Of a stretch of DNA of 45,232 nt, positions 6,466-43,079 are shown in pieces. A model generated the notes under the pieces. It was not told where the DNA came from and searched no databases. It was given only the letters and a program-made list of their open reading frames with translations. The DNA comes from Thermoanaerobaculia bacterium. Lineage in GTDB: Bacteria > Acidobacteriota > Thermoanaerobaculia > UBA5066 > Gp7-AA6. Position 1 is the stretch's first letter; each line of letters opens with the position of its first letter. The DNA lies in NCBI GenBank assembly GCA_036397915.1, contig DASWIB010000203.1, forward strand, positions 1 to 45,232, in the 5' to 3' direction. Both the position numbers and the translations under genes were made by a program.

Positions 6466-6543
6466 GACCTTCCTTCCTGGTTCGATTCGCCTCGATTACG
6501 TAAGGAGGTCTGATCCCCGAGGGGCCAGATCCCTATCCTCTCG

Positions 6544-6602
6544 CTAGGAATGTGTCCGAGTAATTTCTTGCGGGGGACCTTGCGGTCCCCCGAACCCCCT
6601 AG
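6544..6602 (-). repeat. Family-A 59-nt repeat, copy A1 (hairpin GGGGGACC-loop-GGTCCCCC with CTAG termini)
   Basis: ctaggaatgtgtccgagtaatttcttgcgggggaccttgcggtcccccgaaccccctag. The terminal CTAG contains the parB stop codon (6599-6601). Confidence 0.9.
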
Positions 6603-9029: not shown

Positions 9030-10878
9030 GCGCGCAGATTATCGCGACGGCCGCTGGTGTCACCCCGGGAATGCGAGCCGCCTCTCCAATCGTGCGCGGG
9101 CGCCTCCTTGCGCACTTCTCCACGACCTCGCGAGAGAGGCCGGGAACGCCGTCGTAGAGGAAATCCGCAGGGATCCGGCGGCTCTCCAGGGGTTTCAGCC
9201 GTTCGACCCGATCCCGCTCGCGCCGGATGTATCCTTCGTAGCGCACCCGGCTCTCCAGGACGGCGCGCTCCTCGCGGTCGAGGCTCGACAGAATCTCCGG
9301 AGCCCAGCGAGCGAGGGCATCTGACGATAAATCCTGTCTTTTCAGTAGGTTACGAAGGCTGGACGGCCGGTCGAGCCGGATTCCGAGCACTCTCTCGATT
9401 TCGGCGCTCGTCTCCCGGTCCGGCCGGATCTCCGTCGAAGCCAGCTCGGCCTCCGCCCGACGGAGCCGCTCCTCCGATCTCATGGCGAGCGAGTAGTCCT
9501 CGGAGGAGACGAGGCCGAACCGCCGCGCGTACGGCAGAAGGCGCGGGAGGACCGAATCGACGCCGAGCAGAAGGCGGTACTCGGCGCGCGAGGTGAAGAG
9601 ACGGTACGGTTCCTCCAGTCCTTTGGTCGTCAGGTCGTCGACCAGGACCGCGGCGTACGCTTCCGAGCGGTCGAGCACGAAAGGCTCTTCGCCGCGCACC
9701 GCGAGCGCCGCGTTGATCCCCGCCCAGATCCCCTGCGCCGCGGCCTCTTCGTAGCCCGAAGTTCCGTTGATCTGGCCGGCGAAGAAAACCCGGGGAACTT
9801 CCCGCGCTTCCAGAGAGGAGCGGAGCTGCTCGGGGAACGAGAAGTCGTATTCGACCGCGTACCCCGGACGGATCATCCTCGCGCGCGCGAGCCCCGGGAT
9901 CTCGCGGAGGATCGCCCGCTGAACGTCTTCGGGAAGGGAAGTCGAGAGGCCGTTGATGTAGATCTCCTCCGCATCCCAGCCGTCCGGCTCCAGAAAGATC
10001 GAGTGGCGCGGCTTGTCGGCGAACTTGACGACCTTGTCCTCGACGGACGGGCAATAGCGCGGACCGATGCCGATGATTCGGCCCGAGTACATCGGGCTCG
10101 CGTGGAGGTTGTCGCGGATGAGCGCGTGAACGCGCTCGTTCGTCGCCGTCAGCCAGCAGAGCGCCTGCTCCCGGGAAAGGCTCTCCGTGCGGAACGAGAA
10201 GGGAACCGGCGGATCGTCGCCGCGCTGCGGCTCGCACAAATCGTAATCGACGGTGTCGCGGTGCACGCGCGGGGGCGTGCCGGTCTTGAAGCGGCCGAGT
10301 CGCAGTCCGAGCCTCGCGAGCGCGGCCGAAAGTCCGACGGCGGCCGGCTCTCCCACCCGCCCGCCCTCGGTCCGTTTCTCGCCCGTGTGCATGAGGCCGC
10401 GCAGAAACGTGCCGGTGGTCACGACGACGGCCGAGGCTTCGATGCGCTGGCCGGTGGCTGTGACGATTCCGGTGACGCGTCCGCCCTGGACGGTGAAGTC
10501 CTCCACCATGCCCTCGATGAGCCGAAGGTTCTCCGTCTCGGAGAGAGCCTGCGCGGCGATGCGCGAGTAGAGCGCCCGGTCGCATTGCGCGCGCGGCCCC
10601 CACACCGCCGGGCCGCGGGAGCGATTGAGGATCTTGAACTGGATTCCCGCCCGGTCCGCCAGGCGACCCATCAACCCGCCGAGCGCGTCGATTTCCCGGA
10701 CGAGCTGCCCTTTCGCGAGACCGCCGATCGCGGGGTTGCAGGACATCCGCGCGATCGCGCGGAGATCGCCGGTGACGAGCGCCGTCGCCAGACCCATCCG
10801 GGCCGCGGCATGGCTCGCTTCGCACCCGGCGTGGCCTGCCCCGATGACGACGACGTCGAACTTCTCCACGTCGCTCAT
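8998..10878 (-). CDS. mnmG: tRNA uridine 5-carboxymethylaminomethyl modification enzyme MnmG (GidA)
   Basis: 626 aa with the FAD motif [14 protein letters not shown], plus [19 protein letters not shown]. Confidence 0.97.
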
Positions 10879-12302
10879 TTTCCGATGCAGAAGGCCGAGA
10901 AGATCCGCTCGAGAACGTCTTCCGACGTCGTCTCGCCGAAGACGTCCGCGAGCGCGGCCAGAGCCGAATCAACGTGGGTCGCCGCGTACTCCGGCGAGAC
11001 GCCGCGCCCGAGTGCGCCCAGCGCTTCGTCCGTCGCCCCACGGGCGCGCTCGACCAGGTCGCGCTGGCGCACCGACCCGAGCACCTCCGAAGCGGAGTCG
11101 CTCGTCACGTCCGATGCGATGGTCTGCTCGAGCAGCGCGCGCAGCTTCGCACCGGCGTCGGAGGCGAGCCCGCGCAAGGCCAGTGCTCGGGGCGGTCCGC
11201 TCGCAGTGCGCACCGGCGATCCGTCCAGGGGGTTCGGGGGACCGCAAGGTCCCCCGCTGAGATTACTCGGACAAACTCCCAGGAGGTCGATCTTGTTCGC
11301 GACGAAAACGACCGGCTTTCCGTCGAGCCCCTCGACCGCCTCCCGGTCCTCCTCGATCCATCCCGCCGCGGCGTCGAAGACGTACAGGATCGCCGCGGCC
11401 CTTTGCCCCTCGTCGCGGGCGCGCTCGACTCCGATCCGCTCGATGCGGTCGTCGGTATCGCGGAGGCCCGCGGTGTCCACGAGCTCGACGGGGATCCCCC
11501 GCACGTCGAGCGTCGCGTGGAGGGTGTCGCGCGTCGTGCCGGGAACGTCCGTGACGATCGCCCGCTCCGTCCCGAGGAGCGCGTTGAAGAGCGTCGATTT
11601 GCCCGCGTTGGGACGGCCGAGGATCGCGACGCGGCAGCCACTGGAGAGAAGGCGCCCCGTGTCCCAGCTCGCCGCCAGGCGGGCGAAGCAATCGCGCGCG
11701 GCGGCGAGACGCTCGGGGACGGATGGGTCCACGTCTTCGCCGACGTCCTCGGCGAAGTCGATCGTCGCGGCGAGGCTCGCCGCCGCGGCCAGGAGGTCCT
11801 CACGCGCCCGACCGAGGCGCGAAGAGAGCCCTCCCTGGAGCCTCGCAGACGAGACGCGAGCGGCGGCCTCGGTCCGGGACTCGATCAAGTCCCGGATCGC
11901 CTCGGCTTCGACGAGATCCAGCTTGCCCGAGCGGAACGCTCTCTCCGTGAACTCGCCGGGACGAGCGGCGCGCGCGCCCGCCGCGGCGAGGAGACGGAGA
12001 AGCCTCTCGACGACGATCGGGCTCCCGTGCACGGAGAGCTCCGCCACGTCCTCGCCCGTATACGACGCCGGAGCGGCGAAGAGCGTCGCGAGCCCGCGGT
12101 CGATCGCCTCGCCCTCGAGATCGCAGAGCGAAACGAGGTACGGCCGGCGCGGTTCGATCCGCTCCCGCAGCTCCGGCGCGACCCGCGCGAGGATCTCGCG
12201 CGTGCGGTCGCCCGAAAGGCGCACGATCGCGACGGCGGAGCGGCCGAGGGGCGTCGCCAGAGCGGCGATCGTGTCGAGAAGCGAGTCGGAAGCGGGACGC
12301 AT
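10875..12302 (-). CDS. mnmE: tRNA modification GTPase MnmE (TrmE), carrying an in-frame repeat insertion
   Basis: 475 aa with an N-terminal [20 protein letters not shown]1 [10 protein letters not shown]3 DTAG, G4 NKID and a C-terminal FCIGK. Repeat copy A2 lies between G4 and the G5-like LASDAG. Confidence 0.93.
11225..11283 (+). repeat. Family-A repeat, copy A2, located inside the mnmE ORF
   Basis: ccagggggttcgggggaccgcaaggtcccccgctgagattactcggacaaactcccagg. On the mnmE strand it reads [20 protein letters not shown] with no stop or frameshift. Confidence 0.9.
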
Positions 12303-13145: not shown

Positions 13146-13204
13146 CTCGGGGGTTCGGGGGCCGCAAGGTCTCCCGCAAAAAGATTATTCGGACACACTC
13201 CTGG
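13146..13204 (+). repeat. Family-A repeat, copy A3 (yidC-jag spacer)
   Basis: ctcgggggttcgggggccgcaaggtctcccgcaaaaagattattcggacacactcctgg. The hairpin has one compensated change (GGGGGCC/GGTCTCCC). Confidence 0.85.
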
Positions 13205-14862: not shown

Positions 14863-14920
14863 CCAGGGGGTTCGGGGGACCGCAAGGTCCCCCGCTGAGA
14901 TTACTCGGACACACTGCTTG
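14863..14920 (+). repeat. Family-A repeat, copy A4 (yidD-yidC spacer)
   Basis: ccagggggttcgggggaccgcaaggtcccccgctgagattactcggacacactgcttg. Confidence 0.9.
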
Positions 14921-15770: not shown

Positions 15771-15830
15771 CCAGGGGGCTCGGGGGACCGCAAGGTCCCC
15801 CGCGAAAAGATCACTCGGACATACTCCTGG
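15771..15830 (+). repeat. Family-A repeat, copy A5 (rpmH-dnaA divergent spacer)
   Basis: ccagggggctcgggggaccgcaaggtcccccgcgaaaagatcactcggacatactcctgg, with CCAGG/CCTGG termini. Confidence 0.9.
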
Positions 15831-18590: not shown

Positions 18591-23918
<5,328 letters not shown>

Positions 23919-23932
23919 GGAGGCTTCCCCCC

Positions 23933-24160
23933 CTGTCATCCCGAGCGAAGCGAGGGATCTGGCCGCGTAGCGGTCATCCTGAGCGAAGCGAAGGATCTCT
24001 TGGCCAAATGGAGAGATCCTTCGTCGCTTCGCTCCTCAGGATGACAACTCGTCGCTTCGCTCCTCGGAATGACAACTCGTCGCTTCGTTCCTCAGGATGA
24101 CAACTCGTCGCTTCGCTCCTCAGGATGACAACTCGTCGCTTCGCTCCTCGGAATGACAGG
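23933..24160. repeat. Family-B repeat cluster in the gyrB-gyrA spacer: two forward half-sites plus five tandem 28-bp reverse half-sites
   Basis: Forward copies are ctgtcatcccgagcgaagcgagggatct (23933-23960) and ggtcatcctgagcgaagcgaaggatctct (from 23972). The reverse unit TCGTCGCTTCG(C/T)TCCTC(A/G)G(G/A)ATGACA(AC/GG) repeats head-to-tail 5 times at 24021-24160 with no spacers. Confidence 0.9.
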
Positions 24161-33235: not shown

Positions 33236-33351
33236 CCCGGGGGTGCGGGGGACCGCAAGGTCCGCCGCCAAAAGACTACTCGGACCCACTCCCCGGGGGT
33301 GCGGGGGACCGCAAGGTCTCCCGCCAAAAGACTACTCGGACCCACTCGTAG
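33236..33351 (+). repeat. Family-A repeats, copies A8 and A9 (head-to-tail pair, GGGGGTGCGGGGGACC variant)
   Basis: Two consecutive ~58-nt units, cc(c)gggggtgcgggggaccgcaaggtc(c/t)(g/c)ccgccaaaagactactcggacccact, lie between the convergent NAT-like and MBL genes. Confidence 0.9.
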
Positions 33352-33370
33352 TCCGGAGTGGACCCGATCC

Positions 33371-40009: not shown

Positions 40010-40067
40010 CTAGGGGGCTCGGGGGACCGCAAGGTCCCCCGCTGAGATTACTCGGACAGACTCCTAG
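40010..40067 (+). repeat. Family-A repeat, copy A6 (upstream of topA)
   Basis: ctagggggctcgggggaccgcaaggtcccccgctgagattactcggacagactcctag, with CTAG at both ends. Confidence 0.9.
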
Positions 40068-40110
40068 TTTGCGCTTTGCAGTCCGTTGTGGCAGCGTCCC
40101 GCACCCTGTC

Positions 40111-42732
40111 ATGCCGAGCATCGTCATCGTCGAGTCGCCTGCGAAGGCGCGCACCCTGGAGAAGTTCCTGGGCAAGGACTTCCGTGTGCTCGCCTCGTAC
40201 GGGCACGTGCGGGACCTTCCGAAGAAGGGCCTGGGCGTGGACCGCGAGAACTCCTACGAGCCGACGTACGAGGTCCTTCACGGCAAGGAGAAGACGCTCC
40301 TCGAGCTGAAACGGGCCACGGCGAAGGCCGACGCGGTCTATCTCGCCGCGGACCCCGACCGTGAGGGAGAGGCGATCTCCTGGCACCTGAAGGAAACGCT
40401 CGCGCCGTCGGCCGGGGGCAAGCCGTTCCGCCGGGTGCGGTTCAACGAGATCACGAAGAGGGCCGTGCTGGCCGCGATGGACCAGGCCGGGGAGATCGAC
40501 TCCCGGCTCGTGGACGCGCAGCAGGCGCGCCGGATCATCGACCGGCTCGTCGGCTACGAGGTCTCCGACCTGCTGTGGAAGAAGATCTGGCGCGGGCTGT
40601 CCGCCGGCCGCGTCCAGACGGTCGCGCTGCGGATCATCTGCGAGCGCGAGAAGGACATCGAGAGCTTCGTCCCGGTCGAATACTGGACGGTGGACGCGGA
40701 TCTCGAAGCGTCCACGCCGCCGCCGTTCACCGCGAAGCTCGTCTCGTTCGACGGGCAGAAGCTCAAGTTCGACGGGACCGACCCGCGGCTGGATTCGGAG
40801 ACCGCGGCGGAGCGGGTGCGCCAGGAAGTGGAGCGCGCGGCGTGGCGGGTCGCCAAGGTCGACACTTCCGAGCGGCGCAAGAACCCGCCGCCCCCCTTCA
40901 TCACCTCGCAGCTCCAGCAGGCGGCCGCGCGGCGGCTCTCCTTCCCGGTCCGCCGCACGATGCAGATCGCGCAGCGCCTCTATGAAGGCCGCGAGATCCC
41001 GGGCCGCGGCACCGTCGGCTTGATCACGTACATGCGCACCGACTCCACGCGCGTCTCCAACGATGCTCTGGGGGCGGTTCGCGAGCACATCGCGGCACGG
41101 TACGGATCGGGTTCGGACGTCCTGCCGGATTCGGCGCGGTTCTTCCGCGGCAAGCGCGGCGTCCAGGACGCGCACGAGGCGATCCGTCCGACCGACCTGT
41201 CTCTCCCGCCGGACGAAGTCGCCCGCCACCTCTCGTCGGAAGAGGCGAAGCTCTATCGGCTGATCTGGGAACGATTCGTCGCGTCGCAGATGGCACCGGC
41301 CGTCTACGACACGGTCGCCGCCGAGATCGAGGCGGGCCGGGCCCTCTACCGCGCCTCCGGCTCGACGTTGAAGACGCCCGGCTACCTCGCGGCGCACGGC
41401 GTCGCGGTGGAAGAGGACGAGGAGGCCGAAAAAGAGGGCGCGAAGCTGCCGCCACTGACGGCCGGCGAGACGCTGAAGCTCATTGCCGTCAAGGCCGAAC
41501 GGAAAGAGACGCAGCCGCCGCCGCGCTTCAACGAGGCGTCACTCGTGAAGTTCCTCGAGGAGAACGGAATCGGCCGACCGTCCACATACGTCGAGATCCT
41601 GCGAAAGCTCGAGGACCGCGAGTACGTCCGCAAGAAGGACCGGCGGTTCATCCCCACGGCGCTCGGGCGTACCGTCGTCGAGCTCCTGATCCCGTACTTC
41701 GACGATTTCTTCGAGACCGGCTATACCGCGAAGATGGAGGAGCGTCTCGACGAAGTCGAGGAGGGAAAGCTCTCCTGGCGCACGGCGCTCGCGGAGTTCG
41801 ACGAGAAGTTCACGCGAGACCGCAACCGCGCGCTGGAGAAGATGGTCTCGAGCAAGGCGGGGATCCCGGTCGCCGACGCGCGCCAGCTTCACCTTCCGGT
41901 CCCGGCGGATCTCGAGGAGAAATGTCCGCAGTGTGGCAAGAAGCTGAAGCTGCGAATGGGCAAGAACGGGCTCTTCGTCGCGTGCAGCGGGTATCCCGCG
42001 TGCACGTTCACGATGCACATCCCCGACCCGGACGAGGACGCGATCGATTCGGCCGAGCTCGAGTCGACGACGTGCGAGGAGTGCGGCTCTCCGATGAAGC
42101 TGCGGCAGAGCCGGACCGGGAAGGCGTTCCTCGGCTGCACGGCCTATCCCCGCTGCCGCAACATCGTCAACGTCGTGATGGCCGAGGGAAAGGCCGAGGC
42201 GCGGCCGGACGAGGCGACGGGGGAAAGCTGCCCGCAGTGCGGCAGCCCGCTCGTGCGCCGACACGGCCGCTACGGCGCGTACGTCTCGTGCTCGAACTAT
42301 CCCGCGTGCCGGTACAAGCCCCCGAAGCCGGTCCTGGACACGGGCGTCCGATGCCCGAAGGACGGTGGCGCGATCGTCGAACGACGCGGCCGGTTCAAGC
42401 CGTTCTACGGTTGCGTGAACTACCCGGCCTGTGACTTCTCGCTGAACGCGCGTCCGATTCCGGAAGCGTGTCCCAGCTGCGGAAACCCGTATCTCCTTCT
42501 GCGCGAGCGCAAGGGTGGGGCGGTGCTCGCCTGCGATCGTGCCGGCTGTGGCTTCGAGAAACCGGCTGGCGAGATCCCGTCGATGAGAGAGGTGCTCGTC
42601 GAGACCCGACCGACTCCGCGAGTCGTTGCGGGGAAGGAGAAGCCCGCGCCGGCCGGGAGAAGGCTCTCGCGAGCGCGCTCGGCCGAGTCGAAGGCGGCCG
42701 CGCCGCGGCGCCGCGCCAAACGCGCCAGCTAG
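40111..42732 (+). CDS. topA: DNA topoisomerase I (type IA) with five C-terminal zinc-ribbon modules
   Basis: MPSIVIVESPAKARTLEKFLG Toprim start, the active-site region ITYMRTDST, and five CxxC...C..C repeats (CPQCGKK..., CEECGSP..., CPQCGSP..., CPKDGGA..., CPSCGNP...). The start is placed at the ATG at 40111. Confidence 0.95.
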   Translation: MPSIVIVESPAKARTLEKFLGKDFRVLASYGHVRDLPKKGLGVDRENSYEPTYEVLHGKEKTLLELKRATAKADAVYLAADPDREGEAISWHLKETLAPSAGGKPFRRVRFNEITKRAVLAAMDQAGEIDSRLVDAQQARRIIDRLVGYEVSDLLWKKIWRGLSAGRVQTVALRIICEREKDIESFVPVEYWTVDADLEASTPPPFTAKLVSFDGQKLKFDGTDPRLDSETAAERVRQEVERAAWRVAKVDTSERRKNPPPPFITSQLQQAAARRLSFPVRRTMQIAQRLYEGREIPGRGTVGLITYMRTDSTRVSNDALGAVREHIAARYGSGSDVLPDSARFFRGKRGVQDAHEAIRPTDLSLPPDEVARHLSSEEAKLYRLIWERFVASQMAPAVYDTVAAEIEAGRALYRASGSTLKTPGYLAAHGVAVEEDEEAEKEGAKLPPLTAGETLKLIAVKAERKETQPPPRFNEASLVKFLEENGIGRPSTYVEILRKLEDREYVRKKDRRFIPTALGRTVVELLIPYFDDFFETGYTAKMEERLDEVEEGKLSWRTALAEFDEKFTRDRNRALEKMVSSKAGIPVADARQLHLPVPADLEEKCPQCGKKLKLRMGKNGLFVACSGYPACTFTMHIPDPDEDAIDSAELESTTCEECGSPMKLRQSRTGKAFLGCTAYPRCRNIVNVVMAEGKAEARPDEATGESCPQCGSPLVRRHGRYGAYVSCSNYPACRYKPPKPVLDTGVRCPKDGGAIVERRGRFKPFYGCVNYPACDFSLNARPIPEACPSCGNPYLLLRERKGGAVLACDRAGCGFEKPAGEIPSMREVLVETRPTPRVVAGKEKPAPAGRRLSRARSAESKAAAPRRRAKRAS

Positions 42733-42787
42733 GAATGTGTCCGAGTAATCTTTTCGCGGGGGACCTTGCGGTCCCCCGAACCCCCAG
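42729..42787 (-). repeat. Family-A repeat, copy A7 (contains the topA stop codon)
   Basis: ctaggaatgtgtccgagtaatcttttcgcgggggaccttgcggtcccccgaacccccag. The TAG at 42730-42732 is the topA stop. Confidence 0.9.
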
Positions 42788-43021: not shown

Positions 43022-43079
43022 AGGCGAGAAGGTGTCCGAGTTTGTCGGCGGGGGGCTTTGCGGTGCCCCGCACCCCCTG
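43020..43079 (-). repeat. Family-A repeat, diverged copy A10
   Basis: ctaggcgagaaggtgtccgagtttgtcggcggggggctttgcggtgccccgcaccccctg. It has the same layout as A7, but the hairpin is degenerated. Confidence 0.65.

Follow-up and report, generated by a model that had tools for sequence, protein, structure and literature searches.

In-frame insertion of a small palindromic repeat into the G4-G5 loop of MnmE in a Thermoanaerobaculia bacterium

A 45,232-nucleotide (nt) stretch of DNA from a Thermoanaerobaculia bacterium (contig DASWIB010000203.1, positions 1 to 45,232, here called the window) carries dispersed copies of a short palindromic repeat, named family A, and one of these copies lies inside mnmE, the gene for the tRNA uridine-34 modification GTPase. 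This copy is very probably a small non-autonomous repeat resembling repetitive extragenic palindromic (REP) sequences and miniature transposable elements with inverted repeats (MITEs), which was recently inserted into mnmE and is carried as a tolerated passenger in a loop of the protein.

The mnmE gene (10875..12302, minus strand) was intact and coded for a protein of 475 amino acids (aa) ending in FCIGK, as determined from the list of open reading frames (ORFs), Pfam, and a match to the Protein Data Bank (PDB). The Pfam domains were TrmE_N (1.5e-36), MnmE_helical (7e-36), and MMR_HSR1 (5e-27), and the closest solved homolog was T. maritima TrmE/MnmE (1XZP, 6e-89). All GTPase motifs considered here are on the minus strand. 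The G1 P-loop GRPNAGKS (residues 229-236, 11595..11618) was intact and invariant in the ortholog alignment, the G4 motif NKID (residues 336-339, 11286..11297; N336, K337, and D339 invariant) ends two residues upstream of the insertion, and the G5-region GLASDAG (residues 378-384, 11151..11171; G378, L379, A383, and G384 conserved) forms the downstream edge of a variable loop. The peptide derived from the insert comprises 18 aa between G4 and G5 (residues 342-359, window 11226-11279), and 9 of the 18 residues are Gly or Pro because it is a translation of G5/C5 hairpin arms.

The family-A core in mnmE, GGGGGTTCGGGGGACCGCAAGGTCCCCCGCTGAGATTACTCGGACAAACTCC in its forward form, is 51 nt long (11229..11279, plus strand) and is read from the minus strand within MnmE residues 342-358. 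On its left is CAG (11226..11228, plus strand), which is the CTG of Leu359 on the mRNA and, from the alignment of filled and empty alleles, a candidate 3-nt target-site duplication; on its right is another CAG (11280..11282, plus strand), the CTG of Leu341, placed by the sequence and the same alignment. The initial annotation had put a repeat copy at 11225-11283, in frame within the 475-aa gene between NKID and a G5-like motif. Its reading of sequence and frame held, while the extent was refined to the core with CAG/CAG flanks. The element length is divisible by three, and four of its six frames are open, including two of the three in the mnmE orientation, as had been annotated. In mnmE it supplies 18 sense codons in frame with no stop, and the ORF runs uninterrupted to FCIGK.

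The insertion was evident from the nearest MnmE proteins. Four of them (P0001-P0004) were 475 aa long and contained the peptide, while P0005 was 457 aa long, lacked exactly 18 residues, and was about 97% identical to the window MnmE over aligned positions, with about 15 substitutions. The mnmE encoding P0005, on locus L001 from another metagenome, differed by 47 substitutions in 1374 nt (96.6% DNA identity), and the sole indel between the two genes was a 54-nt (18-codon) gap exactly at the element. The excess length of the protein was thus accounted for by the element, as first annotated, in a clean indel that coincided with the repeat. Synteny between the window and L001 extended from yidC to parB over 7.1 kb at 95.3% identity; within it no coding indel came near the 54-nt gap in size, and there was just one more, of 9 nt near the yidC 3' end. 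A family-A copy 3' of parB was retained in L001, so that genome has the element. The MnmE orthologs that were about 75% identical all lacked the family-A peptide, which sets the polarity as insertion and not deletion; nor was the peptide seen in any ortholog without a family-A insert.

The junctions read GAC CTC CTG-(51 nt)-CTG GAC in the filled allele and GAC CTC CTC GAC in the empty one, a net gain of 54 nt (51 + 3). Equal 3-nt flanks were present at 4 of the 9 full-length window copies (CAG, TAG, TAG, and CCG), and the net gain in mnmE is consistent with a probable 3-nt target duplication. The filled allele was inherited in six contigs from different Joint Genome Institute (JGI) samples (the window, L065-L067, L068, and L069), which form two sublineages about 4% apart (54-58 nt different across the gene); the insert was identical in all six save for one base in the 3' CTG. 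JGI samples with the filled allele are 3300037515, 3300037518, 3300033417, 3300037692, and 3300037483. Between the filled and empty genes dS was 0.087 and dN 0.016 (dN/dS 0.19), and motifs G1-G5 and the catalytic C-terminal FCIGK were conserved in the filled MnmE. On these substitution rates, mnmE with the insert is still under purifying selection, and judged from its near-identical empty counterpart the insertion is recent.

A single insertion after the split from L001 would be the simplest history. The other history considered, in which the element was already present in the ancestor of three lineages about 4% diverged and was precisely excised in L001, so that the empty site is secondary, was judged unlikely. 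It draws on the near-equal distances among the three lineages (window, P0002, and P0005; 3.4-4.2%), on the fact that the grouping of the window with P0002 to the exclusion of P0005 comes from one informative amino-acid site only, and on the precise excision that is known for transposases of the IS200/IS605 and REP-associated tyrosine transposase (RAYT) types. However, the derived residue at that one site favours L001 as the first branch, and the empty site reads CTC where precise excision is expected to leave CTG. Since all outgroups lack the segment, the origin by insertion stands under either history.

The loop between G4 and G5 was the most variable part of the MnmE alignment. It measured 13-20 aa in most relatives against 37 aa here and up to 52 aa across orthologs, and the phmmer alignment to 1XZP opened a 15-residue gap inside the insert, so the excess loop length that had been annotated was borne out against relatives. 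An AlphaFold2 (AF2) model, used solely for secondary-structure and disorder placement, gave the expected G-domain secondary structure and placed residues 343-367 as coil with a predicted local distance difference test (pLDDT) score below 50; this coil is bounded by the G4 strand (331-336) on one side and a short strand before G5 on the other. The insert thus falls in low-confidence coil of the G4-G5 loop, in line with the surface-loop location first proposed, and probably sits in a flexible, length-variable, disordered surface loop.

In the favoured mechanism, the repeat would have landed at the Leu341 codon, two residues past NKID, with a net gain of 54 nt (51 plus the probable 3-nt target duplication), equal to 18 codons. 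Because this gain leaves a stop-free frame, MnmE would be made with an extra Gly/Pro-rich peptide of 18 aa, a translation that is predicted from the DNA. The addition would be tolerated because the G4-G5 surface loop is variable in length and probably disordered and because the catalytic motifs are untouched. Copies inserted at other places or in frames with stops would be purged by selection, and permissive loops would therefore gather repeat-derived sequence. On this reading the insert is most likely a passenger that MnmE tolerates rather than a functional module, with neutrality as the presumed state.

The same loop was colonised repeatedly. MnmE orthologs of about 74% identity contained DWTAAGAGPFGTCPRDF once or twice in the G4-G5 loop, encoded at L002:11063-11158 by a 48-nt tandem pair. 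The underlying repeat, family B (core GGTGCAGACCCCTTCGGGATCTGTCCCC), is an imperfect palindrome, GCGGGTGCAGACCCC-TTCG-GGATCTGTCCCCGC, unrelated to family A. It formed intergenic clusters beside a tRNA gene in another metagenome-assembled genome (MAG; L053:5807-5925), and an exact match to its 28-mer was present in a random sample of 66 metagenome contigs (L070-L135), usually in intergenic clusters. The only genic copy among these 66 contigs was again in mnmE (L113:10659-10703), in the opposite orientation and read as SPRGQIPKGSAPAAVH. A local tandem duplication had been considered for family B, as no other copy was found in the 21 kb of L002, and was rejected on the intergenic copies in L053 and the 66 contigs.

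A census of loop content was made on the 120 closest MnmE cluster representatives. Family A was found in 4, family B forward in 16 (including footprints such as DGWTCPRDF, which are apparent deletion remnants of family B), and family B reverse (SPRGQIPKGSAPAAVH) in 6, so that 26 (22%) contained some repeat-derived sequence. Family B in either orientation accounted for 22 of the 120, with one or two forward copies per loop. The presence of family A, family B forward, and family B reverse shows that at least three independent events shaped the MnmE G4-G5 loop. At L089, a family-A-like hairpin GGGGGGCCGCAAGGTCCC (~1009-1048) lay directly upstream of a family-B copy (1049-1076), so the two families co-occur and nest side by side in the same genomes.

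Several points weigh against a mobile repeat that is merely tolerated in a disordered loop. Transposase domains were not found in the window ORFs scanned, ten further ORFs included. A phmmer search with E. coli TnpA-REP gave no RAYT-like match in 780 kb of related DNA (5170 ORFs); this search covered fragments of about 25 genomes with one distant sequence, identical to PDB 4ER8, as the probe. Because neither a transposase nor a RAYT was found, the mobility of family A, presumably by transposition, was read from just two signs, the existence of filled and empty alleles and the dispersal of the copies. The case for a 3-nt duplication is ambiguous, as the empty allele has CTC and not CTG and the YAG may belong to the element termini. 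The AF2 model was only moderate (mean pLDDT 67.7, predicted template modelling score 0.40, from a shallow 22-sequence alignment), and the low scores that it gives the loop would fit disorder but do not prove it. Finally, two families recur in this one loop among 26 of 120 orthologs, and the cause could be targeting or selection instead of mere tolerance.

This last point leads to the view that the loop is not neutral, either because REP elements target the mnmE site or because Gly/Pro-rich peptides are selected there (e.g. for G-domain dimerisation, GTPase cycling, or partner binding), which was considered improbable. The share of representatives with a repeat-derived loop, in which one or two copies are kept, speaks for it, as do the sole genic family-B copy of the random sample (L113), which was again in mnmE, and close relatives with a common left flank (RIAGDGGGAPR...) that contain family B in opposite orientations. 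Against it, the inserted peptides of the different families and orientations are unrelated in sequence and show no sign of a shared function; remnants and incomplete copies (DGWTCPRDF) point to decay and not to upkeep; loops free of repeats are hypervariable too (13-26 aa); the near-identical empty allele of L001 persists; and the insert was modelled by AF2 as unstructured. It is likewise doubtful that the G4-G5 loop of Thermoanaerobaculia MnmE is a genuine hotspot that preferentially captures REPs, through target preference or nesting by earlier copies, and in which translated hairpins feed selection. The recurrence is most simply explained by a loop that is extremely permissive.

There is very little probability that the insert is missing from the mature protein through ribosome bypass or removal at the RNA level, with the flanking CTG codons as take-off and landing sites. 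Identical CTG codons do surround a 51-nt hairpin segment, which folded at -26.8 kcal/mol in the mRNA orientation, and a sub-threshold Rfam match to a frameshift-site hairpin was obtained. However, bypass is unnecessary for an insert that is open in frame with a length divisible by three, and no stop follows the putative take-off codon, a defining trait of known bypass elements. Genic copies elsewhere were all open in their own frames, a state that is partly ascertainment because the screen flagged only copies spanned by an open frame. The resemblance to bypass elements such as T4 gene 60 and mitochondrial byps lies in the CTG ... CTG arrangement, which is equally expected from target-site duplication, whereas those elements have a stop codon or frame break in the gap in place of the 18 in-frame sense codons found here.

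Although repeats can cause mis-joins in metagenome assemblies, a mis-spliced repeat or a decaying mnmE pseudogene was effectively refuted, as a sequencing read is longer than the 51 nt of the element, the same junctions recurred in six independent contigs from different samples and two diverged sublineages, and the mnmE ORF was intact in all six, with conserved motifs and the low dN/dS already given.

Insertion of family A was not confined to mnmE. In-frame genic copies made up 7 of the 69 family-A copies sampled in MAG loci (~10%), in six further Pfam-verified genes. Single copies were found in DnaE (where the copy is inside the PHP domain), a Sir2 deacetylase, a DUF4953 Met-zincin, and a PD40/amidohydrolase protein. 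An orthologous TPR membrane protein of two MAGs contained family A at the same position, with two copies in one (L025:6844-6911) and one in the other (L038:1373-1405), which suggests either an older shared insertion followed by local duplication or a second recurrent site. The genic copies used different frames and orientations, one of the resulting peptides being GSGDRKVP. In Sir2, the repeat peptide fell inside 20 extra residues placed between positions 71 and 73 of the solved homolog 1M2N. The alignment of DnaE to the PDB was gapped near the insert and not clean. L036 gave a candidate genic copy, in a long frame that looks coding but matched nothing in Pfam, and the copy at L054 was dropped as a genic copy, being upstream of greA domains.

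The 51-nt unit of family A folded at -33.9 kcal/mol (z = -4.8), with paired termini GGGGGUU/AACUCCC that enclose a 9-bp hairpin capped by GCAA and a small second hairpin. Its conserved part is a module of about 33 nt, GGGGGNNC-GGGGGACC-GCAA-GGTCCCCC-GC, to which a lineage-specific right arm is added. In other genomes the module took the form (YAG)GGGGNNC-GGGGGACC-GCAA-GGTCCCCC-GC, often in direct tandem clusters, and the right arm as it stands in the window was confined to close relatives. A scan for the hairpin core, with one genome per species, returned at least 61 stretches, all of them in Acidobacteriota/Thermoanaerobaculia MAGs among the matches listed, near-complete ones such as CAWFHK010000001.1 (a 4.46-Mb contig) and CAWINF01 included, and MnmE homologs in public data likewise carry the name Thermoanaerobaculia. 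At L043:5542-5620, the right arm of a family-A copy was enlarged into a palindrome of its own, GGAGTGTGTCCGAATAGGATTAGTCGGACATACTCC; the window right arm, ACTCGGACACACTCC, may thus represent one half of another hairpin module, in which case the element would be modular.

Ten family-A copies were found in the 45-kb window with an nhmmer profile. The mnmE copy (E = 7e-18) scored like the intergenic ones, which upheld the claim that it is as well conserved as they are, and it differed at two positions from each of the copies at 14866 and 40013. A 52-nt pattern gave three matches in the window at three mismatches or fewer, against none expected from 100 shuffles. The other nine copies were intergenic by codon-position G+C content and ORF inspection, and copies lay in both orientations relative to adjacent genes, which argues against a strand-specific RNA role for family A. 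No Rfam family matched at gathering thresholds over the whole window, and at permissive E-values the two family-A copies searched matched only the frameshift-site hairpin (E = 0.46, 17 bits against a gathering score of 34). That lone match is most likely chance, and a known RNA family was rejected as the identity of family A.

Two of the intergenic copies belong to the subfamily of the mnmE copy and were found by both pattern and profile search, one between yidC and yidD (14864..14920, plus) and one between dprA and topA (40011..40068, plus, with TAG/TAG flanks). TAG/TAG flanks were also present at the copy 3' of parB (6543..6601, minus), which occupies the same place in L001. The copy at 13149..13204 (plus) fills the yidC/jag spacer. 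At the corresponding position in L001 (262-320) there is a different short repeat-like sequence, GTTTAAGCCCGACCCCT...GAACCCGACCCCTC, so intergenic repeat content turns over between close strains (95% identity). The profile search further located a copy between rpmH and dnaA (15772..15830, plus), two copies in direct tandem (starting at 33239 and 33294) in an intergenic region (33239..33352, plus), a copy directly 3' of topA (42728..42787, minus), and a degenerate copy upstream of an ABC-transporter ATPase gene (43028..43079, minus).

By these features family A is a REP/MITE-like palindromic repeat, non-autonomous as far as its sequence indicates. The initial annotation had likened the mnmE insertion to Rickettsia palindromic elements (RPEs), and this was apt as a description of how the element works, although family A is not a member of the RPEs. 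These were described by Ogata et al. (2000), as summarised in PMC10969869 and PMC3733652, as small palindromic repeats lying in frame in conserved protein genes, and such in-frame insertion is their hallmark (PMC10969869). Both are dispersed palindromes that lie in frame in unrelated conserved genes and add peptides at positions compatible with the fold, and both have intergenic and intragenic copies in one genome (for family A, mnmE and nine intergenic copies in the window), a resemblance that is functional only. RPEs differ in host (Rickettsia/Rickettsiales against free-living Thermoanaerobaculia of the Acidobacteriota), in size (about 100-150 bp and a peptide of about 30-50 aa against 51 nt with a 33-nt core and 18 aa), and in genic share (nearly half in some RPE families against about 10% of sampled family-A copies). 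Family A has a consensus of its own, and, given the differences in host, length, and G+C, it would not be expected to be homologous to the RPE-1 to RPE-10 consensus sequences.

A precedent is also given by the tagged REPs of Di Nocera et al. (2013; PMC3733652), who catalogued GTAG and CGTC REPs inside genes of several phyla, many of them in replication and repair genes, and noted that recB of two Xanthomonas species has REPs at about the same site, and who argued that intragenic inserts sit in tolerant linkers or loops. Tagged REPs are stem-loops of 20-40 nt whose stem measures 8-9 bp and whose loop measures 4-5 nt, and family A has about 33 nt, an 8-9-bp stem, and a GCAA loop. Both occur in many copies that are mostly extragenic and at times clustered, with a minority wholly inside ORFs for known proteins, including replication genes (DnaE for family A). 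However, the terminal GTAG/CGTC tag was not in the alignments of family A or family B; the family-A consensus starts (C)YAG-GGGGG and ends ...CCCCCGC or ...ACTCC. Both families and the host class also lie outside the survey in PMC3733652, which mentions Acidobacteria only for the TIRYT transposases of other acidobacterial species, and here one loop of one protein was struck by two unrelated families in both orientations.

REP doublets known as REPINs, with their RAYTs (Bertels & Rainey 2011, PMC3116915; Nunvar et al. 2010, PMC2817692), are similarly short palindromes that persist, highly conserved, across the species of a lineage; by analogy, such persistence and conservation suggests that the repeats are maintained by a conserved host-encoded enzyme. 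The mobile unit of REPINs is an inverted REP pair, whereas family A occurs as singletons or direct tandems in the window and in clusters at other loci. MITEs (ERIC, Nezha, and others; PMC10969869), which can make in-frame fusions, share with family A a non-coding and non-autonomous nature and presence or absence that differs between close strains. Family A has candidate terminal inverted repeats in an imperfect match of about 7 nt (CCAGGGG... / ...CTCCTGG), and the matching 3-nt flanks at the four full-length copies noted above may be target-site duplications or part of the element. MITEs are usually about 50-500 bp long, so that 51 nt is at or below the range, and the candidate terminal repeats of family A are only about 7 nt.

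What is new here is two previously undescribed repeat families, the host class, a clean filled/empty pair, and a recurrent landing site, while the mechanism is already known. The mnmE insertion reveals no new kind of mechanism, as intragenic in-frame REPs have been catalogued in several phyla beyond Rickettsia (PMC3733652; PMC10969869). A literature search found no description of these repeat families or of this phenomenon in Thermoanaerobaculia, and in-frame colonisation by palindromic repeats is thus extended from the RPEs and a few REP families to free-living, high-G+C Acidobacteriota. The natural filled/empty mnmE pair (96.6% identical) makes the effect of a repeat-derived peptide on a well-understood, dimerisation-dependent GTPase directly measurable. 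The loops of the closest orthologs (22% with repeat-derived sequence), which two families have entered at one position, in either orientation and also as tandem copies, provide a natural map of insertion tolerance as well. Annotation and phylogenetics call for caution, since a Gly/Pro-rich 'motif' in this loop such as DWTAAGAGPFGTCPR is a DNA hairpin in translation, not a feature conserved in the protein. If the loop were a true hotspot, repeat mobilisation would be a regular route of protein-loop evolution in Thermoanaerobaculia, with loop sequence renewable and under selection.

The window is an origin-proximal region with the gene order atp-parBA-gidB-mnmG-mnmE-jag-yidC-rnpA-rpmH, followed by dnaA-dnaN-...-gyrB-gyrA. 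The rpmH-dnaA spacer usually contains or adjoins oriC, and it is here that the family-A copy at 15772-15830 is located. Searches for tRNA and tmRNA genes in the window found none. A third palindromic family, C (TGTCATCCCGAGCGAAGCGAGGGATC), had at least seven intergenic copies, at 1723, 23934, 23972, 26920 (minus), 30515, 34209 (minus), and 37177, and families A and C together fill most intergenic spacers of this region. The gyrB-gyrA spacer contained a 28-nt tandem array of about five units (23993-24158). Within the gyrB portion of 18591-23918 (plus), Pfam Intein_splicing and LAGLIDADG_3 matched at about residues 954-1474 of the stop-to-stop frame, which shows an intein placed between the Toprim and the GyrB insert/C-terminal domains; the GyrB of the related genome L002 has 806 aa and no intein. 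The window thus has, besides the repeat in mnmE, another and unrelated type of mobile insertion that lies in frame in a conserved gene.

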